NCBI GenBank assembly: GCA_034178815.1
Contig: JAXFQS010000084.1
Coordinates: 2,112-66,111, forward strand
DNA from: Kiritimatiellia bacterium
GTDB lineage: Bacteria > Verrucomicrobiota > Kiritimatiellia > RFP12 > DVOR01
DNA: 64,000 bases
Direction: 5' to 3'
Shown here: in pieces, positions 8,465-47,478 of the stretch
Numbering within the stretch: the stretch's first letter is position 1
How the letters are laid out: every line of letters begins with the position of its first letter
Made by a program: the position numbers and the translations under genes
Notes under the pieces: model-generated
Database searches by the model: none
What the model was told of the DNA's origin: nothing
What the model saw: the letters and a program-made list of their open reading frames with translations, nothing else

Positions 8465-9585
8465 TGAACCTTTTCTCGCATCTCTCCGAAGAGGAGGACA
8501 GGGAGTTCCTGTCGCGGCAGATTCTCACCTGCATCGGAAACAAGCGAGCACTTTTGGGGCCGATTGCCGATGCGATAGGGGTTGTGAGGAAGGCGCTCGG
8601 TGGGGGAAAAATGCGTTGCTTCGACCTCTTTTCAGGGAGCGGAATCGTCTCGCGCCTGTTCAAGCAATTCGCCTCGCTCGTGGTCGCCTGCGATCAGGAA
8701 CGCTACGCCTCGGTGGTCTCCAGGTGCTACCTTTCCAACCGCCGTGTACTGGCGGAAAAGGAGTTCGCCAACTGCTTCGAAGAGTGGAAGAACTGGGTCG
8801 AGAAGAACCTCGAACCGGGCTTTCTCACGCGCCTCTATGCGCCCGCGAACGATGCCGACATCCAGCCGGGCGAGCGGGCCTTCTACACCCGGGCGAATGC
8901 CGAAATCCTGGATACCGCCCGCCGCGCACTCGACCGCATCGTTCCCCCGCGCTATGCCGACTTGCTGCTGGGGCCGCTCCTTTCCGAAGCCTCGATCCAC
9001 GCCAACACTTCCGGCGTGTTCAAGGGCTTCTACAAGAATCGCAAAGGCACCGGAGCGTTCGGCGGCGAAGGTCGAAACGCGCTCACGCGCATCTGCGGAA
9101 AGGTCGTTCTGCAACACCCCGTCCTCTCCCGTTTCGACTGCGACAGCCTCGTCCTAGAAGGCGACGCCAACGCACTCGCCGCGACAGCCCCGGAGGTCGA
9201 TCTGGCCTATGTCGACCCGCCCTACAATCAACACCCCTACGGGTCGAACTACTTTATGCTGAACCTGTTGGCTGACTACCGGGAGCCGGATGCCGTCAGC
9301 CCGGTCAGCGGCATTCCGCGCAACTGGAACCGGTCGGTCTACAACAGCCGAAAGGAGGCCGCACCGGCCTTCTTCAGCCTGCTGGAAACCATCCGCGCCA
9401 AGTACCTGCTCGTCTCCTACAACTCCGAAGGATTCATTCCGCACGCCGAACTGGAAGCCTGCCTGGCGCGGCTCGGGCAAGTCACCTCGACCGCCATCTC
9501 CTACAACACCTTCCGGGGAAGCCGAAACCTCCGCGCGCGCGCACCGCGCGTCATCGAGTACCTCTTCCTCGTCAAGCGCGCCTGA
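8464..9585 (+). CDS. Dam-family (D12 class, alpha group) N6-adenine DNA methyltransferase, apparent orphan
   Basis: motif X-like IGNKRALLGPI, motif I DLFSGSG, motif IV DPPY (DLAYVDPPYNQHPYG); start ATG overlaps exosortase stop (TGATG); no restriction endonuclease gene nearby. Confidence 0.7.
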   Translation: MNLFSHLSEEEDREFLSRQILTCIGNKRALLGPIADAIGVVRKALGGGKMRCFDLFSGSGIVSRLFKQFASLVVACDQERYASVVSRCYLSNRRVLAEKEFANCFEEWKNWVEKNLEPGFLTRLYAPANDADIQPGERAFYTRANAEILDTARRALDRIVPPRYADLLLGPLLSEASIHANTSGVFKGFYKNRKGTGAFGGEGRNALTRICGKVVLQHPVLSRFDCDSLVLEGDANALAATAPEVDLAYVDPPYNQHPYGSNYFMLNLLADYREPDAVSPVSGIPRNWNRSVYNSRKEAAPAFFSLLETIRAKYLLVSYNSEGFIPHAELEACLARLGQVTSTAISYNTFRGSRNLRARAPRVIEYLFLVKRA

Positions 9586-9717
9586 CGGCGACTAGGCAGG
9601 AGTCGCCTGCGTTGATACCAACCTTTCGGGCGAAACGATAGCCACCACACATGCCCCAAGGTGCCTATCCGACCGTGTGAAAGGTTCCCACCTATCCCCC
9701 TCCCCTAAAACAGAAAC

Positions 9718-9742
9718 GGGAGGTTGCGATAGGCAACCTCCC
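9718..9742. repeat. hairpin GGGAGGTTGC-gata-GGCAACCTCCC in convergent intergenic region; motif family member / bidirectional terminator candidate
   Basis: 10-bp perfect stem. Confidence 0.5.
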
Positions 9743-9768
9743 TCAGAGGGACACAGCCTGTCGAACGG

Positions 9769-12700
9769 CTAGAAGTGGCGCGGCCCCAGCGCCGGGCCAA
9801 GCGAACGCTCCTGCTGAAGCAGTTTCAACGCCTCGGGGATACGCTGCCTCAGTTGCGACACCTGGCTCAACCGCTTCAGCGCCGTCTCGCCGCCAACCTT
9901 GAGCGCCTGAAGCAACGCCTGGTGCCCATACTGCACCTGCCCTACTTCGTAGTAGAGAATTGCCAAGTTCCCCCACATCATCCAGTCATTCGGACAGAGT
10001 TTCAGATAGCGGGAATAGATGCTCATCACGGGCTTGTACGCCTGCGCCTGAAGCGCCGCTTGGAGCAGCGTCTGCAATTGTTCAGGCGAGAGATTGGGAT
10101 ACTTCAACGCCCGATCGATAGCCGTTGCCGCCGCCTCCAAGCGGCGCATTGTCGCCAGCACACGGGCAATCGTGCAAAGATCGGCAGGCGCCAAATTGGG
10201 AATCTTGAGCAGTTGCTCGTAGGCCTGCCCCGCGTGAAGCCCATCGCCCAAGTCATAATAGGCGGAAGCCAGCGTGGCGAGTTCCTTCGGAGAAATGGTT
10301 CCATTGCCCATTTTCGGCGCCAACGCAGCAACAGTCTGGCGCGCCTTGAGCACCCCTTCGAGGTTCGCGCAAAGACCAAGCGAACGCGTATTCTTCGGAT
10401 CTCTGGCGTTGAACTCGCGCAGCACGCGAAGCGCTTCCTCCAGCCGGTTTTGGGGAATCAGCACCTCTTGAACCAGGCGGAAGTTGGCCTCCGGGCTGAC
10501 CGGGTAGAGCGCACGCCCCTGCTCGAAAGCAATCTCGCTCTCGCGCCTCATGCCGCGATTGGCATAGAGCCCCGCCAACGCGCAACGCAACTTCGAGAAA
10601 GATTTCTGCGCGACCAAATCGCGACGGAATTTGCGGTCACGGGTCAACCGCCGCAGGTACCAGTCCCAGAAATCCAAGTCGGCATTCGCCGTCCTTCTGT
10701 CCAGCGGAGTCTCCTTCGCGTTGATCTTCATAATCAGGCCGTGCGGCGAGAGGTAAGGATACATCCACGGAATGACATAACTCTCTTCGAGATAGAAGTC
10801 GTGGCGAGCGATATTCTTCTCCCACATCATACGGCAAAGGATGCCGTTGATTTCCATGACCCCGAGTGCTCCTGAGACTTGAACGCGGCCGTTTTCCACC
10901 CGCAAATCGGCGTTGGCGGCGCGCTTGCCCTGATTGACCTCTTCGACATAGATTTGGAACGCCTTTGCCGAATCATCCGCCGAAGGGATCCACATCTGAT
11001 TGCCGTAAAGATCGCGTTCGACCGACATATAGGTGCCATCGGCGAGGGCATTCTGCGTGATGAGAAAGACATCCGGCCGCACATTCGCCGCATAGATCAT
11101 ATAGGTCGGCACGAAACGCCCTGGATCGGTTCCGCCGAAGAAGACGGCATTCGTGGTCATTGCCGGAGGATAGAGCGGATTGGGCAGAGGTTCTTCGTCG
11201 GGGGCGAGTTCTTCACGAATCGCGTCCGCCCCGCGCAACTGGTAATTGCCGAACTGCCAACCATAGTCGTGCCCATTCTGCTCGGCGGCACTGGCCTTGA
11301 AAACCAGATGGTCGTTCATAAAGTTCTCCCATACCGGCACGAGCGGCACCATCAGGGCAAGCACCGTAGCCCCAAGGCACGCCGGACGGAAGCAACTCGG
11401 CAGGTACTTGGCGCACACCTCCGCGCCAACGAAGAGCGCCAGAATCAACCCGTAGCCAATCCAGAGGGAATAGAGACCGTGGGAGGAGATGAACTTCACC
11501 TTCTGGATGAAGTAGTCCTGCAAATCGCCCGTGGGGTTGGCCAAAGCGATGAGCATGACCGACATCACCAGAAAGGCCAACATCGTGCCGATGAGCCATT
11601 GGCGGCTAAGCGGCGAAAACTCCTGGTGAAGCACGCAGTCGGCATCCGTCTTGCTGCCAGATGGGAGGAAGTTCCAAGCAAGCAAAAGCGCGCCGAATGT
11701 CAATCCAAATCCGAGGAAGATTGAGACAACACTGATGAGAACGGGCAAATGAGTGTGCCATATTGGAGTGTGCCACATTGTCGGCAGGACAGCCAACAAG
11801 ATACGCGAAACCAACGCCCCGATTCCCAGCACGATTCCGACAATCGCCAAGCCGCGCGTGATACCCTCGGCGGTCATTCTGTCACGCCAGGAATCGCGGG
11901 CTATCGAGACCACTTGCGACAGCCCAATGGTCACGAATCCAACGGCGCTGAGCAACACCATCCCGCCCATCAGATACTTGTCGATACGCCAAAGCGGCTC
12001 GGTCTGGAAGAGTTCTGCTATGAAAACCACCAGGGCGCAGAACAGGAAGAGCACAACGGCGGGCAGCAGCATCCGGATTCGGCGATTGCGCCAGATGAAG
12101 TTCCAGGCGGAGAATGGCAGAATCGCCAACGGCGCGACCAGCAGGGTGAATTGGACGCGCACATCGGTGAAGTAGTCGCCCAGTTGCTGGAGAAAGCGTT
12201 CAGTGAAGATGCTCTGGGCCGAAATCTGCTCGTACTGCCCGCGCGTAATGGCGTGCTTGAAGCCTTCCCAAGTCCGCGGATAGCCCCAGTTCATCGGGGG
12301 ATTGCGCAGGTCGGAGACGATTGGCATGTAGGCGTAGAAACTCACGCCCAATTCGCAGAAGAAGATGGTCGCGGCGACCGTTCTTCCGTTGGGCAGACAA
12401 ATCAAAGCCAGCCCGAGCAGGAGGAAGTTCCACAACACCGGCCACCAGAACCACCAGGTGCTGGGGTGGGACAGTCCTAGGAGCGCACCTTTGCGCAACA
12501 GCAGGTAGACCGTCAACTGCACAAACGCCACCGCCACCGCGAAGAAGGTGGCGCCTCGGGTCAGCGCGGATGTGACCGTCAGATAGACTAGTAGCGCCAC
12601 GACCACAACACCGACCGAGAGCCAATCCTGTATAGGACCGCGGAACCCTGTCGGTATGGATTGGGTAGGGAGCATTCCTATGACCACCAGCAAAACCAAC

Positions 12701-34935: not shown

Positions 34936-35384
34936 TTTGCCTCCCCTCCGCGGGCGTAGAGGTCGGCCAGAGCCGAGAGGGCGAGGCAGTAGCCGAAGCC
35001 TCCAAATCCAGTCAACTGTCCGATGCAGACGGCGGCGGTATAGGAGGTCTGTCTAAAGTTTTCGCGGCGGTGAATATTGGAGAGATGGACTTCGACGCAA
35101 GGGAGTCCGGCGGCGGCGATGGCGTCTCTCAAGGCGATTGAGGTGTGGGTATAGGCGGCGGGGTTGATGACCAATCCATCGTACTTACCCCTTGACGCGC
35201 CGATGAGTTTGACCAATTCACCTTCGACATCGTGCTGAATCCAGGAGACCTCCAGTCCGATGTTTCTACCGTGGGCGACGGCACGGGCCATAATGTCGGG
35301 CAAAGTTTCGCGCCCGTAGTGTTCGGGCTCGCGCGTGCCGAGAAGGGCGAGGTTGGGGCCGTTGAGGATGAGTACCTTCTTCAT
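34932..35384 (-). CDS. aroQ: 3-dehydroquinate dehydratase, type II
   Basis: MKKVLILNGPNLALLGTREPEHYG, INPAAYTHTSIALRDA, VEVHLSNIHRRE; start at internal Met; 4-nt overlaps with both neighbours. Confidence 0.85.
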   Translation of the reverse strand: MKKVLILNGPNLALLGTREPEHYGRETLPDIMARAVAHGRNIGLEVSWIQHDVEGELVKLIGASRGKYDGLVINPAAYTHTSIALRDAIAAAGLPCVEVHLSNIHRRENFRQTSYTAAVCIGQLTGFGGFGYCLALSALADLYARGGEAK

Positions 35385-36164
35385 CTTGGGTTCTCTCTGG
35401 GGTTGGTTGAAATCTCTTTGGCGGGAACGATTTCGCGGCGGTTGTTCTCGAGTTCGAGGGTGACTCGCGCGGATGGAACATTGCGGGAGATAAGTTTGGC
35501 GCGGGCATCTTTCCACGCGACTGTGGCGCCGTCCGGCGGGAGGCTTTCGCGGGATTGGCGGTAAACTTCCGCCTCGAAGGCATAGCAGCATTTGAATTCG
35601 CCGCAGAGTCCTGCGGCCGCCTCAGGAACGGGGGCGACACCCTGGAGTCGGAGCATGGCAGGGGTCGGCTGAAGGGCGAGTCCGGCGCGGGCGCAGCAAA
35701 TCTCTTGTCCGCAGCAGCCTAGTCCGCCAAGCATCATTGCTTCGCCGCGCGAGCCAATCTGGCGTATGTCGACGCGTAGGCGGTTCTGGCGCGCGAAGAG
35801 TCTCGCTTCGTTCTGCAAATCGACCGTTCCGGAACCGCCGCAGTAGATGCAGAGGCTCCTCTGGTCGAGGGAGATTCGCGCGCCGATGAGTTTGACGCGG
35901 TGCGCGGATTTCCGGAGGATTGTCTGGAAGGCGTCGAAGTATTTCTCGGCCACTTTTCGCCCCGATTCGTAAGCAGCCAAATCCCCGGCCGAGGCCAACC
36001 TCTGGATGGAGAAGGTGGGTTGCTTTCCCTCCGCGAGGCAGCGGCAGAGTCGCCCGACGGTCTCGCCGTATTCGAGGCGCACGACGCAGGCGGCGCCCGG
36101 TGCGAGTTCCAAACCGCCGGGCGCGGCAGCAACCACGCAGGCTCGCCCCTCCGTCTTGACCATC
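35381..36164 (-). CDS. PSP1 C-terminal domain protein (RicT/YaaT-like, Cys-rich)
   Basis: PSP1-like conserved region with Cys cluster GGLGCCGQEICC and ...CGEFKCC; start placed at Met 36164 just after stop of upstream PKS-like gene (upstream part of 508-aa ORF is out-of-frame overlap, rejected). Confidence 0.5.
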
Positions 36165-36171
36165 CACTGGC

Positions 36172-39100
36172 TCAAGGCGTTCCTCCAATCTGCTCGGCCG
36201 GCAAGATGCAGGCGGCGACCGCGTGGTTGGCGTAGGTGCTGACCCGGACGGCAATGCGCTGTCCCTTGAGGCGCGGGAAGGGGTCGAGCCAGCCGCCGAG
36301 CAGTTCCATCTCCACCATACCCTTGACGCAGTCTGCCGAGCGCACCCGGAGGTCGATCGGCGAATAGCGGATGCCTGTTCCGAGCGCCTTCGAGACGGCC
36401 TCCTTCGCGCACCAGAAGCGCAACAACATAGCCGGCGCGTCGCCGCAGGATGCCGCGAGATTCTGCTCCTCCTGCGAGAAGACGCCGCGGGCGAATTCCT
36501 CGCTCAAATCGCGCCCCAGCCGTTCGAGATCGATGCCCAGCCGCGCATTCTCCGCCACAGCCGCCACGACCAGCGACGCCGTGTGCGCGATACTCAGATC
36601 GAGTTGGCCCCCCTGCTCCTGCATCCAGGGCCCGATGGCATGCGGCTTGCCCGAATCGTCCGGCCAGACCGCAATGTCCGCCGCGCCCCAACGCTCCCGG
36701 CGCGTCTCCTGCAAATGGCGCCGGACAGCCTCCTTCGCCGCCACGCGTCCCAGCATCCACTCCAGTCGGCGGGCGACCGAACTTGAGTTGTCGTACCACT
36801 CGTCGCGCTCCTGAGGCGTGAGCACAATCATCGCCAGCGTCTTGAGCCAAAGTTCCTGGTTCCCCGTGAAGAATCGCGGCTCGAAGGACTGCACCACCGC
36901 GCCCCATACCGGCACCGGCGCGGGCGGCATCAACTCGTTCGGCAACGGATCGGTGAAATAGTTCTCCGTGGGGCTCAGCGTAAAGTCATAGAGTTTGCGC
37001 GCCACATGCGTGCTGAGTTCCTCCCAGCCGTGGATTTCGACCAGCAGATTCCCCTGCCCGTCGCTCACCGATATGTCCACCGTTAGCGAACGAGGCGTCA
37101 CCCCCGTCAGCCGCAGATAGGCCTTCAACCGCCCGCCGGGCGGAGGCTCCGGCGCGAAAAAGCAAATCGACCGCGCGCGGAACGGAAACGAAATCGCGCC
37201 CTCAAACTTCTCGTGCGAGCGCCACAGCGGAAAGCCCGAGACCACCCCATCGAAAAGGATTGGCGCCACCGCGAAAGCCGGCAACTCCACCGAGGTGATT
37301 GCCTGCGCCGGAGAAGGCGCCTCCAACTCGAAGTCAATCCCGTTTTCGCTCCACGAATCGACATGGCGGATGGTGCGCAATTGGGGCCCCTGGAAGAGTC
37401 GGCGAGGATAGATGTCTCGCCCCGACCAGTTGACCGCACGCGGATTGACCAGAGGATTTGGACAGGCACGGCGCGTCGGAGGATAGGCCGCCGAAAAAAC
37501 CACCGTAGCCTCAAGAGCCGGCCAGGTGAAACCGGAGTTAGGCTGCTCCTTACGCAGTTGCACCTTCACCGCATACTGCCCGTCAATCCCCCACGACACG
37601 CGCTCCGCCCAGAGCCGCACATCCAGCAAGTCCCGCTCGAATCCCAGCCAGCGTTGCGCCTTCATCCCAAGGATTCGCACCACCCGCAAGCCATCCGGCA
37701 GAAGCCTCTGCGCCGCCTCGCACATCAGTTCGATTCCCGTCGGAACCGACAGCAGCGTCATGCCCCGCAACTGCGTATTGATGCGGGATAGTCGCGAAGA
37801 GCCCAGTGCGTAGTCGCGCAAGAACGGATAGTCCACCAATTTGATGGTTGCGTGCAGTTCCACCGAGATGCCCGGTTCCAGCGAGAGCACCCGAGCCTGC
37901 TGCAGAAGCGGCTGGCGTACGCCACAAGTGCGGTCCCCCTGCTCGGCATGCCCCGGCGCAATCGACGCGGGTGACTCAGCCTCGGGCAAAGCCGTTCGCA
38001 CCGGGTTGAGATTCACCCCCCCTTTGAGCGGATTCAAGAGCACATCGGGATCTACCCTTGGCAGAACAGAGTCCAGACGAATCGGCGGAGAAACCTCGCG
38101 GGGAACCGGCGTGTCGAAATCCAACATAACCGCCCCCGTGAACTCGTCAGCCCCAGAAAGATCCAGCGGCAGCGGCAACGCACCCAACTGCGCGATGGCG
38201 TGGCACAACTGCAAACGGTCCGGCCGATGGAACCGGTTGAGCGAAACACTCAAGTGCGGCCGCTCAGCACCCAATACTGCCGAAACCTGGCGCGCCAAAA
38301 GCCCGCGCACACCGGCATCGACAAAGACTCGGACGCCATCTTCATAGAGCCGTTCAACCGTGCCGGCAAAGTCAACCGGATTGAAGAACTGGTCGGCCAC
38401 CCACGCGGGATTCACCCGCTGACCTGCCTCAATCTTCCGATTCTCCGTGGTCGAGTAGATCGGGATTCTAGGGATATCCCGCAACCACGCGGAGCAGAAC
38501 TGGTTCAAGAGCGGCAAAGCCTTCGCCGCCCAAGGCGTATTGAAAGGAAGCGCCAGGTGACGAGCCGTCACGACTCCCCCCTGCGTCTGCATATCACTGG
38601 AGACCTGCGTAGCAATGTCGGGCGCGACGCAGATAAGGTGATAGTCCGGCGCGATGGCTTGTGAAACCACGCAACGCCCGGGATAGTCCGCGGCAATTTC
38701 TTCGACTTTCTGCCGCGCCAGACGCTCCACTGAAAGAACCGCCACGGAAGGCATGTCCTTGCGCGTAGCCAATCGAGACATCAAGCGGGCGGATTCTCGG
38801 ATAGCCCGGACGCGCTTGATGCGCAACTGCTGGTCGATGGTTGCTCCGGCGACGGCGGCGGCAGAGTAGGCCCCGCACCCAATTCCGGCAACCGCATCCG
38901 GCACAAGCCCCAAACGCGCCATCATATCGGTATAGGCGAGATTAGCGGCGTGGACATCGGCAATAGTCACCGCAGCAGTCAAAGCAGGCGGAGCGTTGTC
39001 AGGAGAGGAGGGGCGGACAGGGTAGAGCAAATCCGTCGCAGTGCCTTCGCCAAAAAGAGCGGAAAGGGCCTCCTCCGCCTCCTCAAGGCGTTGCCGGATA

Positions 39101-39495
39101 ATGGGAGAGCAGAAGGCCGCCTCACGGAGCATTTCGGGGTGCCAGGCGGTTGCTCCGGCATAAAGGAATGCGACCTTCCCTATGGGCGGTTCGCGGAAGT
39201 AATAGGTTCCGGCCTTGTCGCGAATGCGGGCAATGCCCGAGCGGATTTTACGGGCGGCGGTGCGCAGGCGATCGTGCAGAGAGAGCGTATCGCCTGAAGC
39301 GACGACCAGCCCCAATCGATGCGGAGCCTGTTTGGCGGCGAGGGCTGAGGTATAGGCGATATCGCGCAAAGAGACGCCCGGCGCATGCTCAAGGTAGGTG
39401 GCAATCCGGTCGGCCTCCTCGGCGAGTGCGTCGTGGGAGTGCGCCCCAATCAGCAGGACGCTCTGTGAAACGGAGGTGTCGCTGAGGTTGATCAT
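36172..39495 (-). CDS. type I PKS-like multidomain protein: KS-AT linker, AT-like domain (nucleophile Ser replaced by Gly; His replaced), PKS-type DH domain, C-terminal Sfp-type 4'-phosphopantetheinyl transferase domain
   Basis: linker region typical of KS-AT didomain; AT-like FLYAGATAW...GIGCGAYSAA (GHSxG->GIGCG), ...ALPFNTPW (HS->NT); DH motif LHATIKLVDYP; PPTase motifs GIDLERL and FWCAKEAVSKALGTG; ATGA overlap with upstream KS-like gene. Confidence 0.65.
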   Translation of the reverse strand: MINLSDTSVSQSVLLIGAHSHDALAEEADRIATYLEHAPGVSLRDIAYTSALAAKQAPHRLGLVVASGDTLSLHDRLRTAARKIRSGIARIRDKAGTYYFREPPIGKVAFLYAGATAWHPEMLREAAFCSPIIRQRLEEAEEALSALFGEGTATDLLYPVRPSSPDNAPPALTAAVTIADVHAANLAYTDMMARLGLVPDAVAGIGCGAYSAAAVAGATIDQQLRIKRVRAIRESARLMSRLATRKDMPSVAVLSVERLARQKVEEIAADYPGRCVVSQAIAPDYHLICVAPDIATQVSSDMQTQGGVVTARHLALPFNTPWAAKALPLLNQFCSAWLRDIPRIPIYSTTENRKIEAGQRVNPAWVADQFFNPVDFAGTVERLYEDGVRVFVDAGVRGLLARQVSAVLGAERPHLSVSLNRFHRPDRLQLCHAIAQLGALPLPLDLSGADEFTGAVMLDFDTPVPREVSPPIRLDSVLPRVDPDVLLNPLKGGVNLNPVRTALPEAESPASIAPGHAEQGDRTCGVRQPLLQQARVLSLEPGISVELHATIKLVDYPFLRDYALGSSRLSRINTQLRGMTLLSVPTGIELMCEAAQRLLPDGLRVVRILGMKAQRWLGFERDLLDVRLWAERVSWGIDGQYAVKVQLRKEQPNSGFTWPALEATVVFSAAYPPTRRACPNPLVNPRAVNWSGRDIYPRRLFQGPQLRTIRHVDSWSENGIDFELEAPSPAQAITSVELPAFAVAPILFDGVVSGFPLWRSHEKFEGAISFPFRARSICFFAPEPPPGGRLKAYLRLTGVTPRSLTVDISVSDGQGNLLVEIHGWEELSTHVARKLYDFTLSPTENYFTDPLPNELMPPAPVPVWGAVVQSFEPRFFTGNQELWLKTLAMIVLTPQERDEWYDNSSSVARRLEWMLGRVAAKEAVRRHLQETRRERWGAADIAVWPDDSGKPHAIGPWMQEQGGQLDLSIAHTASLVVAAVAENARLGIDLERLGRDLSEEFARGVFSQEEQNLAASCGDAPAMLLRFWCAKEAVSKALGTGIRYSPIDLRVRSADCVKGMVEMELLGGWLDPFPRLKGQRIAVRVSTYANHAVAACILPAEQIGGTP

Positions 39496-40865
39496 GGCTG
39501 ACTGACTGCGGCCGATTCGAGGAGTGCGAAGGCTGTGTTCCCGGTAAAGTCGATGGAGGCAACGGCTGCGCGGCGCGGGCGGGTTCGGGAGCTTACGGCA
39601 ATCCACGGGCGCGGGGCGGCGAGGGTGCAGAGATTGGGGGAGAGTCGTTGAATCTCCTTGTCGTCTGCGCAGGAAGGAGGAATGGCAGCGGCGCGGATGG
39701 AAAGGGCTGCCTTGAGTACGGCGGCGAGGGAGGAAGCGGTCAGTACATGTCCGATGGCGGTCTTGACGGAACCGACAACCATGGGTGCATTGGCTGCGTC
39801 GCGATAGCCGGCGATGGTCTGTAGGAATCGAAGTTCGGCTTGGTCTTGAAGGGGCAAGCCGGAAGCGTTGGCTTCGTAGAGGTCGATGGCGTCCATGTCG
39901 TCGAGCACTTCACGGCAGGCGCGGCGGAGGGATCGGAAGAGGGCATCGGCAAGGGGCGCGACCTGGAGGCTGGAGCAATCGGAGTGGGATTGCCGGGCGA
40001 TGGCTGAGCCAGTCCCGCGCAGGATGGCGTAGATGGATTCAGCCCCCCCCTGGACATCGCGCCTGCGTTTGAGGATGAGGATGGTGCCTCCTTCGGCAAG
40101 GGTGACGCCGTCGCTCTGGTGGTCGAATGCCAACAGGCGGGGGCGGGTGGAGTGGGGAAGAAGGGTGGCGAGGCCTTGGCGCGTGGCGGGTGAAATGGGG
40201 GGCTGAAGGGCGGCGACAATGGCCATATCACAACGCCTGGCGCGGAGTGCGTCGGAGGCCTGTTCCAGTGCGGTGATGCCGGAAGTCCAGCCCGTGTCGC
40301 AGAGGTTTGCTGGGCCGATGATGCCGAGGGTCTGGGCAATGCGCACGGGCAGGACATGGCGCCAGGCTGGTTCGATCGTGCGCTGTCCGAAGGGCGGCAG
40401 GGCTCGTCTCCAGGCATCGCGAAGGCGGTCGAAGTCGGCAGCGGTCAACTGGGGATTGGCGGCGCGGACGAGGCCTATGGTCTGGTCGAGAAGAAGGGTT
40501 TGCTGAAGCCAGTTGACGGAGGCGGGCGTGTGGACGGGGTTGTGGCAGAGGAAGAGGGCGGTGCGGTCTGTCTGGAGGGTGGAGGCGGGGTGGAGTCCGG
40601 CATCGGCGAGGGCTTCTCCAATAAGTTGGAGCAGGAAGCAGGCGGCGTGATCTTCGCCGGGAACCGGGGGCTCTCGCACGAAGGGGGCGTCGGCGGCGCA
40701 GGTATAGAGGGGCCCTAGGGTTTGGGCAGTGTCGGCGGGAATGGTGGCTCCCTGGACAATACGCCTCCAGAAGGTGGCGAGGTCGGGAGTTTCGGCGAAG
40801 CGGCAGGCCGCGCCTACTAGGGCGATGTCGTCTGACGAGAAGGCGCGGCGGGGCGGGTTCATGGG
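39492..40865 (-). CDS. ketosynthase-like protein lacking catalytic Cys/His (KS0 / chain-length-factor-like)
   Basis: KS fold landmarks: IALVGAACRF..FW, DTGWTSG (Cys->Trp), EANASG (His->Asn), AIGHVLTASS (second His retained); start at internal Met 40865, 8 nt after panB stop; Pro/Ser-rich N-terminal ORF extension rejected. Confidence 0.6.
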   Translation of the reverse strand, partial: PMNPPRRAFSSDDIALVGAACRFAETPDLATFWRRIVQGATIPADTAQTLGPLYTCAADAPFVREPPVPGEDHAACFLLQLIGEALADAGLHPASTLQTDRTALFLCHNPVHTPASVNWLQQTLLLDQTIGLVRAANPQLTAADFDRLRDAWRRALPPFGQRTIEPAWRHVLPVRIAQTLGIIGPANLCDTGWTSGITALEQASDALRARRCDMAIVAALQPPISPATRQGLATLLPHSTRPRLLAFDHQSDGVTLAEGGTILILKRRRDVQGGAESIYAILRGTGSAIARQSHSDCSSLQVAPLADALFRSLRRACREVLDDMDAIDLYEANASGLPLQDQAELRFLQTIAGYRDAANAPMVVGSVKTAIGHVLTASSLAAVLKAALSIRAAAIPPSCADDKEIQRLSPNLCTLAAPRPWIAVSSRTRPRRAAVASIDFTGNTAFALLESAAVSQP

Positions 40866-40875
40866 CGGGGGCGGA

Positions 40876-41634
40876 TTAGGCGAGCGTCTGGCGGTAGGCG
40901 GCGAGGGCTTGTCGAATGGTCTCTGCCGCGTTGCCGTAGGAGTTGGCGAAGGAGGGTTTGTGTCCGAGGGTAAGGCCCACGACATCGTTGAAGACGAGTA
41001 TGGTGGCATCGCAACGGTTGCCGGAACCGCAGCCGATGACGGGCACGGGGACGGCTTTGGCGATGGTTTCGGCGGGCTCTTCTGGTACGCATTCGAGGAC
41101 GATGGCGAAGGCTCCGGCGGCGGCGAGAGCTTGGGCATCGCGGGTTAGATTGGCGACGGCTTCGTCGGTTTTTCCTTGGCGGGAGAGGCCGGTGACGAGG
41201 ATGGATTGGGGGGTCAGTCCAATATGTCCGAGCACGGGGATTCCGTTCTGGACGAGGCGGCGAACGAGGGGGGCGCGGATGGCACCGCCTTCGAGTTTGA
41301 CGGCATCGGCGCCGGCTTGCTGGAGGTAGGTTCCGGCGTTGCGGAGGGCCTCGTCGTCGGAGATCTGGTAGGAGAGGAAGGGCATATCGGCGACTACTAG
41401 GGCGTCTTTGACTCCGCGCACGACGGCGGCAGTATGATGGAGCATAATGTTCTGCGTGACGGCGAGGGTGTTGGGATAGCCGAGCACGGTGTTGCCGAGC
41501 GAGTCGCCCACGAGGATGAGTTCGAATCCGGCTTCATCGGCCAACTGGCCGGAGACGGCGTCGTAGGCGGTCACGCAGGTGAATCGGCGAACGCCTTTGA
41601 GGGCGGAAATCTTGGCTGTGGTCCATCTCTTCAT
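40876..41634 (-). CDS. panB: 3-methyl-2-oxobutanoate hydroxymethyltransferase (ketopantoate hydroxymethyltransferase)
   Basis: TAYD, VGDSLGN, ADMPFLSY, VKLEGG, GHIGLTPQS motifs. Confidence 0.9.
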   Translation of the reverse strand: MKRWTTAKISALKGVRRFTCVTAYDAVSGQLADEAGFELILVGDSLGNTVLGYPNTLAVTQNIMLHHTAAVVRGVKDALVVADMPFLSYQISDDEALRNAGTYLQQAGADAVKLEGGAIRAPLVRRLVQNGIPVLGHIGLTPQSILVTGLSRQGKTDEAVANLTRDAQALAAAGAFAIVLECVPEEPAETIAKAVPVPVIGCGSGNRCDATILVFNDVVGLTLGHKPSFANSYGNAAETIRQALAAYRQTLA

Positions 41635-41708
41635 GCCTCACAGTATAGCACACTCTCGGGCGGGTGGGAATAGATTTTGAGCCGCGGGTGGGGGCAATCG
41701 GACGGCTA

Positions 41709-41877
41709 GCGGCGGGGCGACGAGAAGGTTGACAGGAGTTCTGCGAGGTATCCTTCTCTCAGTCCTTGGGAGCAGACCTCCAGTTCGCGGGCCTGGAGGC
41801 GTTTGACCAGGCGCATGAGGATGGACATACCGGGGAGGATGGTGTGGATGCGGTGGGAAACTTGGCTCAGGATGAGG
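41709..41877 (-). pseudogene. ppx: 3'-terminal remnant of exopolyphosphatase (Ppx/GppA) gene, approx. 56 codons
   Basis: translation ...ILPGMSILMRLVKRLQARELEVCSQGLREGYLAELL resembles end of Ppx/GppA actin-like domain II (E. coli PPX ...[35 protein letters not shown]); different frame from ppk fragment. Confidence 0.5.
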
Positions 41878-42729
41878 TCAATCGCGGCGCGGTCGCCCTT
41901 GGCTAGGCTGTTCCACAGTTTCCTCAGCCCGTCGGCGCATGAGGTCGGCCATAAACTCGCGGTAGTCGCGTTCGCCGTCGTATTCGCGGTCGGGGTCGAT
42001 GTCCGCGTTGCGGGCCAATCGGAAGAGGGTTGTCTCGCGCAGGGTGCAGTCCGGGAAGGCGTTGGCGGCGCAGAGGCGGAGGATCTCTTCTGAGAGCGCG
42101 AAGCGGCTTTTCCCGGGCAGGACGAGGAGTCTGGGCACGGCGGGAAGGGCACAGGAGATGAAGCCTAGGCGGGTTTTCGACGCGACATCTCCGCGGCGTC
42201 TGGCGAGCACGGCGAGGTAGGTTTCGCGGTCGCGCAGGAAGGGGGGGGGTCGATGTTTGCCGAGCAAAACGACGGAGAGGGTGTCGGCCATTTGTTCGCG
42301 GAAAATCGTCCGGGCGGCGGCTTTGTCCTGCGCGCTCCATTGGTTCGCGGGGACGATTTCGGTTGCGGCCTCGCGTTGGAGGGTTTCACGGAGATGACCC
42401 CACACCTCGGCGCGAAACGCAGAGAGACGCTGGACTTCCGAGCGGGCGGCGGCAAGTTGCTCGGCGACGGACAGACCCGTTTTTTCATCTGGTTCGCCGC
42501 CCAACTGCAGGCGGTCGACCAAGGCTCCGATGCGGACTTTGAAGAACTCGTCGAGGTTGGTCTGGAAGATAGAGAGGAAGGCGAGCCGTTCGCAGAGCGG
42601 CACATCGTCCCGGGCGGCCTCGCCGAGCACGCGCTCGCTGAACTTGAGCCAACTCAATTCGCGGTTGATGAAGAGGTTCTGCCGCGCCTCGGCGGGGAGG
42701 CTGTCCAAAGAGGGGTTGCGCTGATTCAT
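41878..42729 (-). pseudogene. ppk: polyphosphate kinase 1 truncated after N and head domains (catalytic C1/C2 domains absent)
   Basis: PPK1 N-domain FINRELSWLKFSERVL, LAFLSIFQTNLDEFFKVR, head domain through ...NADIDPDREYD...MADLMRRR; ORF stops after approx. 285 of approx. 700 expected residues and panB begins 243 nt downstream. Confidence 0.65.
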
Positions 42730-42841
42730 CACGCCGACACAATCGCACAATCGTGTTAGGGTTGTGTCAGCATTCTGCAGGCGGCGCGATTGGTGCGCAC
42801 CTCTAGCCCCCAAAGATACCCACCTCGGTTCCCCCTTCCAG

Positions 42842-42945: not shown

Positions 42946-45900
42946 CTAATCGCCTAGCAGACGCTTCCAAGCCTTTTCGACCGCGGGCATCGACGACTCC
43001 GGAACGCCCAGCGCCTTGAGCACCTCGCGCGCAATCAGCCGGTGCCCGGCCGCGACCGGATGCACCCCATCGTAAGTGAAATGCCGCTCACCCGTCTTCG
43101 GCAGTTTTGCCAACGCCTCCACCTCCGCCCGCCGACAGTCCGCATAAGGCAACCCCCGGCGCTTCGCCTCGGCGCGGATGAAGTCGGCGAACAAATCGAG
43201 TTGGCGATTCTCGTCATTGTCCGGATTCTCCTGAATGAGCGTCGGCGTCAGCGGCACGACCAGCACCCCCGCACGCGCCGCCTTGTCGTAGATCTCCCGC
43301 ACATTCTGCTCATACGCCTCAAGTTCCACCCCGCGGCCCCAGTCATAGCCCCAAATGTCATTCACCCCGCAAGAGACCGTCAGCACCTTCACCTCGGGAT
43401 TCGAGAGAATTCCGCCTACCCGGCCGAGCATATCCCCCGCATTCTGCCCATCGCATCCCGCACGCACCGCCCGCACATCCTTGACGCCCACCGCATCAAG
43501 CCCCGCCAGCACCAGAGCGATATACCCCCTATCTCCGCCCCCCAGACGCGTAATGGAATCGCCCAAAAACGCAATCGTCTCCCCCGCCTTCACGCGAATG
43601 CCGCGCACTCCGGCCCTTGCTGGCGACGCCACAAACCCGTTCGGGCGCTCGAACCGCTGCCGCTCATAGAGTTCCGGCGGCGGGACGGCAGAACCCAGCG
43701 AGCACATCGTCCGAGTCGAGAACCCATCCGGAGCCGTCCGCCGCACGCAAAACCGACCACCCAAAATTCCAAACTCCTTCAAGAGAACATTCCCCGGCCA
43801 ATCAACTGCCGCCGCCTCGCCCCGACTGCGAAGCGCCCCCATCCACCACCGCCAAGCCGTCCCCGTCACCAGCAGTCCGCCCCCCCCTCGGACAAACTCC
43901 GCCAGTTCCGCCGCTTCCCCATCCTTGAGCGACGAACCATCCACCTTCCGGAATCGCCCATTGACCGAAAGCCACCGCACAATCTGCTCACGAAGCCCCC
44001 TGTTCTCAGGCAGTTCCAGCGACTCCGAATCATCGGCAACATAGACCACGCGCCCCTTCCCCGCCCCCCCTGCTGCAGCCACACACGCCGCCGAACGATC
44101 CCAATTCCTCGCAGCAAAAAGCGGGAACGCCCCCTTCCCCGTGCAATAGACCGAGCCCGCCAAACCATTCACCTTGAAATAACGCGTTCCCGCCGTCAAC
44201 TCCGCCCGTGCCGCGAGTTGCTCAGCAGTCAGCGGCTCCGCCCAAGGCGCAATCTGAGATTGAGGCGCAACACAGTCTGACACGCACACCCGGAACCCCG
44301 TCGCGCCGTGGCCAATCACCGGAGCCGTCTTGCTTCCCAGCCGCCGCCCCCAGGCCGCACAACTCCCTGGATCACCATAGCAAAGCACCGAACCGCCTTT
44401 CATCACACGCCGCCCCTTGTGGCTTCGACTCTCATCGCGAGGCCCCACAGGATCCGTCCCGGAACAGTCCAACAGGCTCTCCGGCGTATTGTGGAAATCA
44501 AGACAGTGCTCAAACAGATTTCCGTGCATATCGTAAAGCCCCCACAGGTTCGGCCGGTACGACCCAACCGCCGCCGGACAAGCCACCCCGCCACAGTTTC
44601 CGCTGTAGCGCCCCAGCGTATCCAAAACGCGATCCCGCTTGACGCTCATAGGCGGCTTGGCATCCTTCACCTTGTAAGGCGCCGCCGCCTCTCCAGTCCC
44701 CCAAGGCCCCTCGCATCCGGCACGACACGCCCACTCCCATTGAGCCTCGGTCGGCAAATCGAAGTCGGCACGAAATCCCGTCAATTCGCGCAGACGACCG
44801 AAAAAGGAGTCGGGCGCGACCTCATATCCCGAGAACGGCCAGCAGATACCGTCGGATGTATGTCCACGCGTATGGCTGTAAGAAATTCCGTTGACAGGAA
44901 GGCTCCCCCGAGCCTCCGAATGCCCGAAGGTGTCCCCGCGCCATGCCCCCATAATGTGGAACCACTGCCTTTGAGTCACCTCGTAAACCCCGATATAATA
45001 GGGGCGGGTCAAAGTCACCCCATGACGCGCATCAGCCCCAGAAGAGAGTTGCGGATTGCCCAAGAAGACCTCGCCGGGCGTAGGTTCGATTCGGCGCAGC
45101 AGCAGCCAATCACCCTTCCACCGCTCGGCCTTCTCTCCTTCTGGCACAGACTCGCGAGTCGGATAGAGTTCAATTTTCCCCTCGTCCGGCCCCGTTAGGC
45201 AGACGCCCATATAAAGTCCCTTTACCGGAGTCGTCGCCAGCGGCTTGTACGGTTCCCGAACCAACCCTCGAACTAGTCCGTCCGGAGCCTTCGCATACTG
45301 GGAACAGTGCCGCGCAGCCGCCTCGGATACCGGCAACGACCACTGACGCATCACAGCCGCAAGATCCTGCTTCACGGCGGCGGAAAACTCCCGGGCGAAG
45401 ACATCCCACTTATCTCCATTCGTACGCGGCACCGCAAAGCCAGGCTTTCGGTAAACGGCGAACACCCGTGCCATCGCGTCCCACCCATAGGTTTCCACCA
45501 GTCTGGCGTAAAACTCAAGCGCGAGGAAGGGATCTTTTTTCCAACTCTCGAAGCGTTTACCCGACGCCACCCACTGCCGCACTTTGGCATCCGCGACGGC
45601 ACGGGCTGTCGCGAAACCGTTCTCCCGGAAACTGCGTCCGGAGACTTTGGATATGCCCAACAGGGTGAAGAGGTTGACGGTGACTTCAGAGGTTCCTTCA
45701 GGCGTCCAGGCGGGATTCTGGTGATTGTGTCCGATCTCGTGGTAGACGCCCCAGGCTTGGGCTCGTTCCAACGCCTGACGGTCGAGGATTACCGCCGAAG
45801 GGTTGCGCCGATTGACTAGAGCCATCATGGGATAGCCGTCGTGAAGGACTCCGATCCCTTGCAATTGGATGTCGCTGCAGAGGCGTTCGGGAGAACGGCG

Positions 45901-47478
45901 AGAAGGCAAACCGGAGAGCCACTGGCAAGCGTCGAGATAGCGATCCCAGTAGGCCGCGACCCACTCGGGATCCTTGCATTGCGCCAGGCCGGTGGTCTCG
46001 AAGGTGATGATGTAGTTGAGGCCTTCAATTTCCCCCTGCGGCGCACCAGTCTGGCGGCACTCTTCGAAGAATCCCTCGGCGGTATCGCGTCCCAGTTTGA
46101 ACCAGGGCGCCATCACGGCTCCGTCAATGCGGACTTTGAAGCGTTTGCCCGCGGCGGGGGGCTGGTCGGGGACGATGATGTAGACGAGTCCGCCGAATGG
46201 GGAGGTCAACTCGACGCGGGATTGTAGCACAGGCGCCTCGGTGGTGACAAGCGGAAAACGCTTCCAGCCCTTGGCCGCGCCGGAGAGGTCATCCTGGGTC
46301 GTGCCGATGCGGATGCGGAGGTTCCAGTCGGCGGCGCCCTCGGGGAAGGTAAAGGTTATCCGGCTACCTGCCGGGGCGAAGAGTCCTGTCGAATGCCAAC
46401 GCGGAACATCAGGTTCGATTTCAATCTCGCGCGAGACGGTCGGGGTTCCGGGCTTGACCAGACCTGGATAAACTTCGGCGGCGGGGTCGGCGGGCCAATG
46501 CCTGAAGCGGTCGGTCTCGTAGGCGGCTTTGCGGGCAAGGATGGCAAGTCTGGCGAAGATGTCTTCGGGTTCCACGGGATGTTCCGGGGAGGGCACTTTG
46601 GCGGCGTCTGGGTGCTTAGCGAAAGCGGCAATCTTCTCCAGCACGCCTTGAGGGAGCGAGGGGGGCAGGACGGCGGCCATTTGGGAGAGGACGACGGCTA
46701 CTTGCCGTTTCTGTTCGCGGCTGGAATAGGTGTTTTTGGCGGCAATCTGGAGTGCGTCGTCGGCGCGGGTACCGTCGGGCACGGTCTGGGGATCGAGCGG
46801 GAAGCCCTGCTTGTCGGGGCGGACGATTCCGATGTCGCCCATCAAGATGCCCATAGGGCCGAAGGTGCGATTGTCTCCGAAGTCGTCGGCGAAGGAGACG
46901 GCCCGGGAGCGGCTGGCGATTTGCTTCCAGCCCCAGCCGAGTCCGGCACCGAGGAGTCCGCCTCCATTGCGGACGAAGTCGAGATAGGCGGGGGCGTTCT
47001 GGACGGTGAAGTCGATGGAGGCGATGAGGTCGTAGCGGGGAAAGTCGGCGGTATCGGCGACGAGGGTGGATTCAATTCCGGCGCGCTTGAGGGCGTTTCG
47101 GATGGAGGGGTTTCGGTAGACGCCGATTTTGGGGGCGGGCTTGTTGCGCGAGAGCCAGCGGACGGCATTGCGGTGGAATGCTAGGGTATCGTCGGAGAGT
47201 TTGCCGTGGGTGAGGAAGGAGGGGTGTCCGAGGTAAATGGCTCGACCTTTGCCGTAGATTGCTCCGGCGGCGGCGAAGGTCGCGGTACCGTCCCAGTTCT
47301 TGGCGCGGGCGATGGGGAAGGCTTCGTCGGAGAGGACGAGCACGGTGCCGGGGAGACCGTCGCAGTTGATGGCACGGACGCCTTCGGCGAGTTCTTTGGG
47401 GAGCGTGGCGGAGGCGGCGTGCAGCACGGGGGCGAGAAGGGCGCCGAGGAGGAGGTTTTGAAGCAGTCTATTCATCAT
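42946..47478 (-). CDS. 1510-aa secreted multidomain protein: ThuA-like domain, M60-like/enhancin zincin peptidase domain (HEIGH), FGE-sulfatase (SUMF1-like) domain, second ThuA-like domain, C-terminal SGNH/GDSL hydrolase
   Basis: signal peptide MMNRLLQNLLLGALLAPVLHA; M60-like YHEIGHNHQ...E; FGE motifs RPYYIGVYEVTQRQW, GSYRPNLWGLYDMHGNLFE, KGGSVL...GFRVCV; SGNH block I IAFLGDSIT and block V DGVHP. Confidence 0.65.
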   Translation of the reverse strand: MMNRLLQNLLLGALLAPVLHAASATLPKELAEGVRAINCDGLPGTVLVLSDEAFPIARAKNWDGTATFAAAGAIYGKGRAIYLGHPSFLTHGKLSDDTLAFHRNAVRWLSRNKPAPKIGVYRNPSIRNALKRAGIESTLVADTADFPRYDLIASIDFTVQNAPAYLDFVRNGGGLLGAGLGWGWKQIASRSRAVSFADDFGDNRTFGPMGILMGDIGIVRPDKQGFPLDPQTVPDGTRADDALQIAAKNTYSSREQKRQVAVVLSQMAAVLPPSLPQGVLEKIAAFAKHPDAAKVPSPEHPVEPEDIFARLAILARKAAYETDRFRHWPADPAAEVYPGLVKPGTPTVSREIEIEPDVPRWHSTGLFAPAGSRITFTFPEGAADWNLRIRIGTTQDDLSGAAKGWKRFPLVTTEAPVLQSRVELTSPFGGLVYIIVPDQPPAAGKRFKVRIDGAVMAPWFKLGRDTAEGFFEECRQTGAPQGEIEGLNYIITFETTGLAQCKDPEWVAAYWDRYLDACQWLSGLPSRRSPERLCSDIQLQGIGVLHDGYPMMALVNRRNPSAVILDRQALERAQAWGVYHEIGHNHQNPAWTPEGTSEVTVNLFTLLGISKVSGRSFRENGFATARAVADAKVRQWVASGKRFESWKKDPFLALEFYARLVETYGWDAMARVFAVYRKPGFAVPRTNGDKWDVFAREFSAAVKQDLAAVMRQWSLPVSEAAARHCSQYAKAPDGLVRGLVREPYKPLATTPVKGLYMGVCLTGPDEGKIELYPTRESVPEGEKAERWKGDWLLLRRIEPTPGEVFLGNPQLSSGADARHGVTLTRPYYIGVYEVTQRQWFHIMGAWRGDTFGHSEARGSLPVNGISYSHTRGHTSDGICWPFSGYEVAPDSFFGRLRELTGFRADFDLPTEAQWEWACRAGCEGPWGTGEAAAPYKVKDAKPPMSVKRDRVLDTLGRYSGNCGGVACPAAVGSYRPNLWGLYDMHGNLFEHCLDFHNTPESLLDCSGTDPVGPRDESRSHKGRRVMKGGSVLCYGDPGSCAAWGRRLGSKTAPVIGHGATGFRVCVSDCVAPQSQIAPWAEPLTAEQLAARAELTAGTRYFKVNGLAGSVYCTGKGAFPLFAARNWDRSAACVAAAGGAGKGRVVYVADDSESLELPENRGLREQIVRWLSVNGRFRKVDGSSLKDGEAAELAEFVRGGGGLLVTGTAWRWWMGALRSRGEAAAVDWPGNVLLKEFGILGGRFCVRRTAPDGFSTRTMCSLGSAVPPPELYERQRFERPNGFVASPARAGVRGIRVKAGETIAFLGDSITRLGGGDRGYIALVLAGLDAVGVKDVRAVRAGCDGQNAGDMLGRVGGILSNPEVKVLTVSCGVNDIWGYDWGRGVELEAYEQNVREIYDKAARAGVLVVPLTPTLIQENPDNDENRQLDLFADFIRAEAKRRGLPYADCRRAEVEALAKLPKTGERHFTYDGVHPVAAGHRLIAREVLKALGVPESSMPAVEKAWKRLLGD

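Follow-up and report, generated by a model that had tools for sequence, protein, structure and literature searches.

A putative Sfp-type phosphopantetheinyl transferase on a degenerate polyketide synthase beside panB in Kiritimatiellia

Introduction

What does a bacterium keep when it retains a polyketide synthase (PKS) whose condensing, loading and dehydrating sites have all lost their canonical catalytic residues? The question is raised by a locus in a 64-kb stretch of DNA (64,000 nucleotides, hereafter the window) from a Kiritimatiellia bacterium (GenBank assembly GCA_034178815.1, contig JAXFQS010000084.1, positions 2,112 to 66,111). Here panB is followed directly by a gene for a stand-alone ketosynthase (KS)-fold protein, KS0, and then by a gene for a 1107-residue protein, AT0-DH0-PPT, which carries an acyltransferase (AT)-fold domain, a dehydratase (DH)-fold domain and a phosphopantetheinyl transferase (PPTase) domain. 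PPTases are essential, since the carrier proteins of fatty-acid, polyketide and non-ribosomal peptide synthesis all rely on them. The reading that we favor, with a probability of roughly 0.6, is that the locus encodes an Sfp-type PPTase mounted on a scaffold of non-catalytic PKS domains, KS0 plus the linker-AT0-DH0 region, predicted to be co-expressed with panB and likely to act as a general holo-carrier-protein synthase.

Gene layout and domain organization

The genes and domains at the center of the analysis are the following (window coordinates).

40876..41634, minus strand: panB, ketopantoate hydroxymethyltransferase, gene 1 of a conserved three-gene unit (Pfam PF02548, Pantoate_transf, E = 1.7e-90)
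39492..40862, minus strand: KS0, stand-alone ketosynthase-fold protein of 456 aa (Pfam KS N- and C-terminal domains, motif alignments, AlphaFold, Foldseek)
36172..39495, minus strand: AT0-DH0-PPT, 1107 aa, with linker, dead AT, dead DH and intact Sfp-type PPTase (Pfam, NCBIfam, AlphaFold)
39196..39465, minus strand: KS-AT linker domain, aa 11-100 (Pfam CurL-like_PKS_C, E = 2e-9, and RhiE-like_linker; folded in the model)
38140..39180, minus strand: AT0, aa 106-452 (Pfam PF00698, E = 5.9e-11; alignments)
37915..38100, minus strand: low-complexity disordered linker, aa 466-527 (AlphaFold)
36976..37893, minus strand: DH0, double hot-dog fold, aa 535-840 (Pfam PS-DH, E = 1.8e-7; alignments)
36187..36909, minus strand: Sfp-type phosphopantetheinyl transferase domain, aa 863-1103 (Pfam ACPS, E = 4.6e-15; NCBIfam)

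The KS0 start at 40862 lies 13 nt past the panB stop, and the TGA of KS0 overlaps the ATG of AT0-DH0-PPT as ATGA (4 nt). Based on the Pfam and AlphaFold domain limits, the genes are split exactly at the boundary between the KS and the linker. Longer open reading frame (ORF) starts for the two proteins (548 aa and 1144 aa) were dropped; every homologue begins at the internal ATG.

Along the 1107-residue protein, Pfam identifies in order a CurL/RhiE-type KS-AT linker (residues 13-71), Acyl_transf_1 (181-405), PS-DH (692-823) and ACPS (986-1051). The AlphaFold models of both proteins are confident. That of the 1107-residue protein, with a predicted local distance difference test score (pLDDT) of 80, shows the linker domain and the AT, then a disordered stretch of 60 residues, and after it a double hot-dog and a PPTase of two lobes. 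The top Foldseek matches of this model are KS-AT-DH structures of PKSs and fatty acid synthases (FASs), structures of this kind are returned for KS0 too, and sequence searches of the Protein Data Bank agree with the Foldseek picture for both proteins. An acyl carrier protein (ACP), a ketoreductase (KR) and a thioesterase (TE) are absent from the 1107-residue protein by Pfam, and no ACP-like helical bundle is seen in its model. The linker at residues 466-527, with pLDDT below 50, contains no helical bundle and no hidden ACP, and is the least conserved segment, with a mean top-residue frequency of 0.50 and a ratio of nonsynonymous to synonymous substitution rates (dN/dS) of up to 0.26.

In these respects the analysis bears out an earlier note on this DNA. 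The KS-fold gene directly after panB, the ATGA overlap, the canonical KS-AT linker with AT, DH and PPTase domains, the C-terminal Sfp-type PPTase with its GIDLE and FWCAKEAVSKALG motifs, and the lack of ACP, KR and TE had all been claimed there, and they are recovered by Pfam, NCBIfam, alignment, the AlphaFold model and the sequence itself.

An intact Sfp-type PPTase domain

The PPTase domain retains the features of a group II (Sfp-type) enzyme. The NCBIfam model TIGR00556 (pantethn_trn) matches in two stretches over residues 984-1098, accompanied by a partial HetI match, as expected for an Sfp-type PPTase. Bacillus subtilis AcpS matches the first half of the domain (885-980), and the AlphaFold model divides it into two alpha/beta halves (863-982 and 984-1103), giving the pseudo-dimer of two ACPS-like halves in one chain. 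An AcpS-type (group I) enzyme is a single domain of ~120 aa and assembles into trimers; here two tandem halves are fused to an 860-aa N-terminal region. The motifs GKP, SIAHT, GIDLE and FWCAKEAVSKALG are all present in the window protein. Among 48 family sequences, WLFGRxxAKE, DDSGKPH, SI(A/T)HT, IGIDxE and FWCAKEAxSKALG are essentially invariant, and D989, E991, K1031, E1032, K1036, G949-K950-P951 and H971-T972 are conserved in at least 96%. The Mg2+/catalytic and CoA (coenzyme A)-binding residues of Sfp-type PPTases are in place.

A separate AcpS or AcpP was found nowhere in 870 kb of gene neighborhoods, which do not amount to whole genomes; the AcpS query matched only the PPT domain. In all related-locus neighborhoods, tblastn with Escherichia coli AcpP was likewise negative for an ACP.

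Loss of canonical catalytic residues in KS0, AT0 and DH0

The three PKS-derived domains keep their folds. For KS0, Pfam recognizes both the N-terminal (PF00109, E = 5.6e-25) and the C-terminal (PF02801, E = 2.8e-17) ketoacyl-synthase domains, and the top Foldseek match of the AlphaFold model (pLDDT 76, predicted template modeling score 0.81) is the KS-AT of DEBS, with a TM-score of 0.71-0.74; by both methods KS0 has the thiolase fold of type I PKS and FAS ketosynthases. AT0 has the AT fold, alpha/beta-hydrolase-like with a ferredoxin-like subdomain, by its PF00698 match and by Foldseek matches to ATs with TMt ~0.8. DH0 has the double hot-dog fold by PF14765 (PS-DH), with the two model halves spanning residues 535-840, and its Foldseek alignments run through the DH of CalA3 and MAS.

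Substitutions in the KS and AT were judged on virtual KS+AT fusions of the window pair and two relatives, aligned with 16 catalytically intact fused homologues. The Cys-His-His triad of KS0 is broken. The catalytic Cys (DAACASS in intact proteins) is Trp192 in DTGWTSG, and the first His (EAHGTG) is Asn332 in EANASG; the Lys and the second His are retained as Lys367 and His372 (GSVKTAIGH, against GSVKSMIGH in intact proteins). The SSDG and GFGG motifs are missing. Across the family, the Cys column is occupied by Ala (15), Thr (11), Gly (6), Cys (3), Trp (3), Ser (2) and Asn (1), and never by Gln, while the Lys and the second His are near-invariant and the first His is present in most lineages. 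KS0 does not match the KSQ or chain-length-factor (CLF) type either, defined by Gln at the Cys position: the window has Trp there, and the GFGG loop is gone.

AT0 departs from the intact sequence at all three of its motifs. The nucleophile motif GHSxG reads GIGCG, the oxyanion motif FPGxGxQ, with its Gln, reads YAGATAW, and the dyad His of YHTP is replaced by Asn in FNTPW. Most relatives have GFSGGDF, with the Ser kept and the His lost, and Asn in place of the dyad His; all three motifs are retained only in L040, L041 and P0144. By comparison with these relatives, the GIGCG of the window is a derived state. The KS and AT substitutions had been read correctly in the earlier note (Cys to Trp and first His to Asn in the KS, GHSxG to GIGCG and dyad His to Asn in the AT), as the alignment with the 16 intact relatives confirms.

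The same note had described the DH as intact-looking on the strength of an HxxxKxxxxP motif, and this claim fails. The motif (H548...P557) precedes the true His column by 14 residues, and H548 is not conserved in relatives, being Ser in L001. In the window, the column of the DH catalytic His is occupied by Tyr562 (FLRDYALG, against FLRDHxxG in relatives); across the family it holds Tyr, with Phe, Asn or Cys in a few members. A PS-DH pairs the His of LxxHxxxG...P with the Asp of DxxxQ/H, and of these two DH0 has lost the His; the Asp of LLDxxGQ is retained as Asp749, and the Gln of DxxxQ is replaced by Ser. The suggestion that the DH and the PPTase were the only plausibly catalytic parts holds for the PPTase, with its invariant motifs, and not for the DH.

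Conservation, synteny and selection

Related loci were collected by a scan of one genome per species. This yielded 57 distinct loci with an AT0-DH0-PPT homologue, almost all in Kiritimatiellia/Kiritimatiellae metagenome-assembled genomes (MAGs), many of them host-associated (rumen/gut), with 37-56% identity over the full ~1100 residues; one locus, L003, is 93-96% identical to the window. A first protein search returned the same split protein at 99%, 75% and 39% identity, and the 75% and 39% relatives share the gene order panB, KS, AT-DH-PPT. A second search with the alignment as query gave the same 20 proteins, and a search with the PPTase domain returned mostly gene fragments on short contigs lacking taxonomic information. 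By tblastn, the KS gene of 41 related loci has panB immediately before it, which upholds the panB linkage put forward in the earlier note. The 4-nt overlap of KS stop and AT start is kept in 39 of 48 pairs.

We calculated dN/dS by the Nei-Gojobori method for 12 closely related pairs. The values were 0.02-0.09 for KS0, 0.02-0.14 for AT0, 0.02-0.06 for DH0 and 0.00-0.10 for the PPTase. Mean column conservation over the 48 sequences is 0.74 in DH0, 0.74 in the PPTase, 0.69 in KS0 and 0.68 in AT0. DH0 has 49 columns conserved in at least 96% of the sequences, many of them charged; the conserved residues include D561, R648, D749, W758, R759, R773, R795, D807, D812, E825 and E826. Collectively, the substitution and alignment patterns place all domains under purifying selection, with the PPTase motifs intact and the synteny conserved.

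Two observations concern individual loci. In four rumen/gut MAGs (L026, L031, L033 and L039), the AT0-DH0-PPT gene lies at approximately 7959-11300 and the genes upstream of it are unrelated (GH5 cellulase, exonuclease, aconitase). In a termite-gut MAG (L036, 7962-12080), the AT0-DH0-PPT ORF as extracted measures 1372 aa, ~270 aa longer than in all other members.

Descent from a split PUFA-synthase-like PKS

When 1.84 billion cluster representatives were searched exhaustively with HMMER, 1477 matches reached E <= 1e-30. Among the matches listed, the top 13 full-length representatives (~1090-1114 aa) are of the dead type; the next tier consists of split AT-DH-PPT proteins of 1100-1160 aa with all catalytic residues intact, followed by AT-ACP-DH-PPT and fused KS-AT-(ACP)-DH-PPT forms. 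In a neighbor-joining (NJ) tree the dead proteins are monophyletic, and their sister group is the catalytically intact split AT-DH-PPT proteins. The DH His is missing in every member of the dead clade, and its loss, as placed on this tree, is ancestral to the whole clade. The AT has decayed in two ways: in one subclade the Ser is replaced by Gly and the His remains, and in the other, of which one member is still intact, the His is replaced by Asn. This stepwise pattern, with the DH His gone clade-wide and the AT lost in these two ways, fits a release from PKS function with retention of the PPTase.

For the KS-AT part of the fused relatives, the polyunsaturated fatty acid (PUFA) synthase model TIGR02813 (PfaA) is the best-scoring named family, with 466-730 bits against a cut-off of 1010; the window proteins score 74 and 57 bits. 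Judged by sequence comparison, the window pair derives from an iterative type I PKS of a split, PUFA-synthase-like kind (KS | AT-DH-PPT) and has lost the canonical catalytic residues. The earlier note had spoken of a decayed iterative PKS resembling PksE or a PUFA synthase; the decayed type I PKS stands, the nearest intact relatives are PUFA-synthase-like, and the likeness to enediyne PksE is loose.

The intact relatives sit in clusters of their own. P0158, a metagenomic protein of the intact split type, is preceded by a large PKS ending in a KR and then by a KS with an intact triad, and is followed by a 106-aa ACP-like gene and a phosphodiesterase, in a lipid-type cluster. The clusters of the fused P0004 and P0011 contain a partner PKS with enoylreductase (ER), KR and DH domains and an ACP, a phosphodiesterase or sulfatase, a sulfotransferase, an alpha/beta-hydrolase and short-chain dehydrogenases/reductases (SDRs). 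L060 (Roseivivax, CP045318) and L061 carry an intact fused KS-AT-DH-PPT in uncharacterized lipid-type clusters with a 1700-2700-aa partner PKS (ER/KR/DH), a sulfotransferase, a sulfatase or phosphodiesterase, an alpha/beta-hydrolase, SDRs and a radical S-adenosylmethionine protein, which suggests sulfated or phospho-lipids as their products.

Two further pairs of loci show partial losses. L040 (2651-7365) and L041 (6553-11270), both from lake MAGs, form the earliest branch in the panB-linked clade; their AT motifs are apparently intact (FPGETSQY, GHSGGEF, YYHxP), whereas both the KS Cys and the DH His have already gone, and the two loci have the look of natural intermediates in the decay. L063 (2121-6844) and L066 (1702-6446) belong to a second dead subclade with no panB nearby, in which the AT Ser and the DH His are lost; the KS partner keeps DAACAS, HGTG/HGSG and GH, and that of L066 also GFGG. 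From these motifs, L063 and L066 possibly have an active KS as partner of a PPTase protein whose AT and DH are dead.

Neighboring genes

The gene directly downstream of the PPTase gene belongs to another family:

35381..36175, minus strand: PSP1/RicT-like gene directly downstream of the PPTase gene (Pfam PF04468, E = 1.9e-8; tblastn 49% identity to the L002 neighbor)

Its TTG start overlaps the stop of the PPTase gene (TTGA), and aroQ, a pfkB-family kinase gene and recO follow; the linkage is restricted to the subclade of the window (L002, L005). An ORF at 35622-36254 was rejected as a gene, the true downstream gene being the PSP1-like one in a different frame. The neighbors of the locus in the window are housekeeping genes, namely recO, the pfkB-family kinase, aroQ, the PSP1-like gene, tyrS, rpsA (S1) and fusA (EF-G), together with topoisomerases, a Mur ligase, glycoside hydrolases and sulfatase-maturase-type proteins. 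Beside the KS0/AT0-DH0-PPT pair, the 64-kb window contains no ACP, PKS, non-ribosomal peptide synthetase or tailoring genes, and promoter and terminator scans gave no signal exceeding chance.

Upstream of panB, at 41706-42813 on the minus strand, lies only the 5' half of ppk1 (PP_kinase_N and part of the middle domain), which runs into a C-terminal Ppx/GppA fragment. In the 90%-identical relative L003 (2374-5789), the same region has ~1.97 kb of extra DNA and full-length ppk1 and ppx ORFs; the window genome has therefore undergone a deletion that destroyed both polyphosphate genes. Farther on, 42946-47478 (minus strand) encodes a 1510-aa protein in which an M60/enhancin-like peptidase is joined to an FGE-sulfatase (formylglycine-generating-enzyme-like) domain and a GDSL lipase/esterase; it is adjoined by a second FGE-sulfatase-domain protein and an extracytoplasmic function (ECF)-type sigma factor.

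Discussion

The favored reading may be set out as follows. In the Kiritimatiellia lineage, the canonical condensation by the KS, malonyl transfer by the AT and dehydration by the DH would have been lost and the C-terminal PPTase preserved. KS0 and linker-AT0 would re-form a KS-AT-type body, which together with DH0 would serve as a non-catalytic scaffold for folding, oligomerization and/or carrier-protein docking. The PPTase domain would take 4'-phosphopantetheine from CoA and attach it to apo carrier proteins whose genes lie elsewhere, the fatty-acid ACP being the likeliest target, and the complex would be a housekeeping holo-carrier-protein synthase, tied to the supply of the pantetheine cofactor by co-transcription with panB. 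The data show the ancestry, the lost catalytic residues, the intact PPTase motifs, the purifying selection and the conserved synteny; we infer that the PPTase is active, that KS0 and AT0 form a physical complex, that this serves as a scaffold and that the target is a housekeeping one. Of the two alternatives in the earlier note, a PPTase in a non-catalytic PKS scaffold fits best, and a lipid or secondary-metabolite tailoring system fits poorly with the housekeeping neighborhood.

Several observations weigh against this reading. KS0, AT0 and DH0 are constrained no less strongly than the PPTase; had they been kept only as a scaffold, more drift might be expected, and the constraint would accommodate a new activity or a regulatory role. 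KS0 keeps Lys367 and His372 almost everywhere and the first His in most lineages, the AT Ser (GFSGG) is kept in most members, and DH0 keeps Asp749. The rumen/gut subclade of L026, L031, L033 and L039 has neither KS0 nor panB within 8 kb, and since its AT0-DH0-PPT gene stands alone, the partnership with KS0 is not obligatory in cis. Members of the dead clade outside the Kiritimatiellia subclade lie among housekeeping genes without panB, and two of the KS partners there keep the catalytic triad, so that the Kiritimatiellia subclade alone shows the panB linkage and has lost the KS Cys.

A broader form of the favored reading, which we put forward tentatively, would make this protein the general, possibly the only, PPTase across the class Kiritimatiellia, built on a fossil PUFA-type megasynthase whose dead KS, AT and DH are a selected platform. 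The dead domains would then recognize carrier proteins, or sense acyl-CoA, malonyl-CoA or CoA, and the activation of ACP would be coupled to pantothenate/CoA supply via the panB operon, as a pseudoenzyme-regulated PPTase.

The rival that survives best, although we regard it as unlikely, is a neo-functionalized enzyme, in which at least one of the 'dead' domains has another catalytic activity that is the true reason for the conservation, and the PPTase is one of several activities. KS0 could act as a malonyl-thioester decarboxylase with its His/Lys/His residues, DH0 as a hot-dog thioesterase via Asp749, and the retained Ser of AT0 (GFSGG) could bind or hydrolyze an acyl or CoA ligand. The dN/dS values of KS0, AT0 and DH0, as low as that of the PPTase, the 49 strongly conserved and often charged DH0 columns, the near-invariant KS Lys and second His with the first His in most lineages, and the AT Ser of most members speak for such an enzyme. 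On the other side, the KS Cys column is hypervariable and not Gln as in decarboxylating KSQ/CLF proteins, the oxyanion-hole GFGG loop and the SSDG motif of the KS are gone, the replacement of the DH His varies (Tyr, Phe, Asn or Cys), and no ACP is present in cis for substrate delivery. Neither the first KS His nor the AT Ser can be essential, because the window has Asn and Gly there.

We consider it more improbable still that the pair belongs to a dispersed secondary-lipid pathway, as the dedicated PPTase and non-catalytic, CLF-like partner of a large PUFA-synthase-like PKS elsewhere in the genome rather than a housekeeping enzyme. The pair would serve that PKS as ArsD does ArsA, ArsD having been called a PPTase that would modify ArsA (PMC4824345). 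The intact P0158, P0004 and P0011 do adjoin large PKSs with KR, DH and ER domains and ACPs in lipid-type clusters. However, the 64-kb window holds no other PKS, ACP or tailoring gene, the scanned flanks of related loci contain no KS or ACP, the conserved neighbor is panB in housekeeping surroundings, and many Kiritimatiellae MAGs that carry the gene are host-associated (rumen/gut).

The last rival, a frameshifted, decaying pseudogene of an ordinary PKS without function, which the earlier note had itself raised and to which the lost catalytic residues and the division into two pieces might point, is refuted by the position of the split, which coincides with a domain boundary, by its 4-nt overlap, kept in 39 of 48 pairs, by full-length ORFs in 57 species-level genomes at 37-56% identity, and by dN/dS values of 0.02-0.14 in KS0, AT0 and DH0, far below 1.

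If the housekeeping role of the PPTase is true, the locus would be a clear natural example of a multi-domain pseudoenzyme scaffold in primary metabolism, and its relatives would offer a graded natural series from intact through partly dead to fully dead proteins for studying the loss and repurposing of PKS domains. Genome-mining tools would then miscall the locus as a type I PKS cluster in Kiritimatiellia.

Comparison with known systems

The earlier note had not recognized this arrangement as described, and our search of the literature on Kiritimatiellia PPTases and PKSs, PPTase-domain PKSs and pseudoenzyme PKSs found no description of it either. A fossil PKS kept around a live-looking PPTase and linked to panB in Kiritimatiellia is a real and conserved arrangement, and apparently an undescribed one.

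The closest systems are the uncharacterized intact KS-AT-(ACP)-DH-PPT proteins (Roseivivax P0011, Baekduia soli P0008 and the metagenomic P0158), which have the same domain order and a C-terminal Sfp-type PPTase. Some of these PUFA-synthase-like relatives are split at the same KS/linker boundary as the window pair, and they have no KR. The intact relatives keep DAACASS, HGTG, GHSxG, YHTP and the DH His, whereas the window pair has none of these. P0158, P0004 and P0011 lie beside large reducing PKSs with ACPs and tailoring genes, in contrast to the window pair beside panB and housekeeping genes. Azotobacter ArsD, described as the PPTase for ArsA (PMC4824345), is a possible analogue as a PPTase-bearing partner.

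The enediyne PKSE also has a C-terminal Sfp-type PPTase after the DH of an iterative type I PKS. It is a single, catalytically active polypeptide with the order KS-AT-ACP-KR-DH-PPTase. The window pair is not a member of this family, because it has no ACP or KR, its KS is a separate gene and its active sites are lost.

Ketosynthase folds without condensation activity that act as structural partners are known from KS-CLF, KSQ and the trans-AT KS0, and the window KS0 would resemble them in this respect. KS-CLF and KSQ typically have Gln at the Cys position, and the trans-AT KS0 keeps the Cys and has lost the His. In the window family, by contrast, the Cys position holds Trp, Ala, Thr, Gly, Ser or Asn, the His residues are mostly kept, and no active PKS accompanies the protein.

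Stand-alone Sfp-type PPTases of ~230-250 aa serve as the only PPTase of the cell in Pseudomonas aeruginosa (PcpS) and in cyanobacteria (Sppt/HetI-type). They share with the window domain the two ACPS-like halves, the W-x-x-K-E-A-x-x-K motif, the Mg2+ ligands and the proposed role as general holo-ACP synthase. Unlike them, the window PPTase makes up the last 245 residues of a protein of 1107 aa; the other 860 are a fossil PKS under strong selection, with a KS-like partner.

In the alpha-subunit of fungal FAS, a C-terminal PPT domain modifies the ACP of the same, fully active complex. The role proposed for the window protein would likewise integrate a PPTase into a megasynthase of primary metabolism, except that the megasynthase part is dead and without an ACP. 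The arrangement would thus reverse that of the known integrated PPTases, with a dead megasynthase that is nevertheless under strong purifying selection around its PPTase, class-wide and beside panB.

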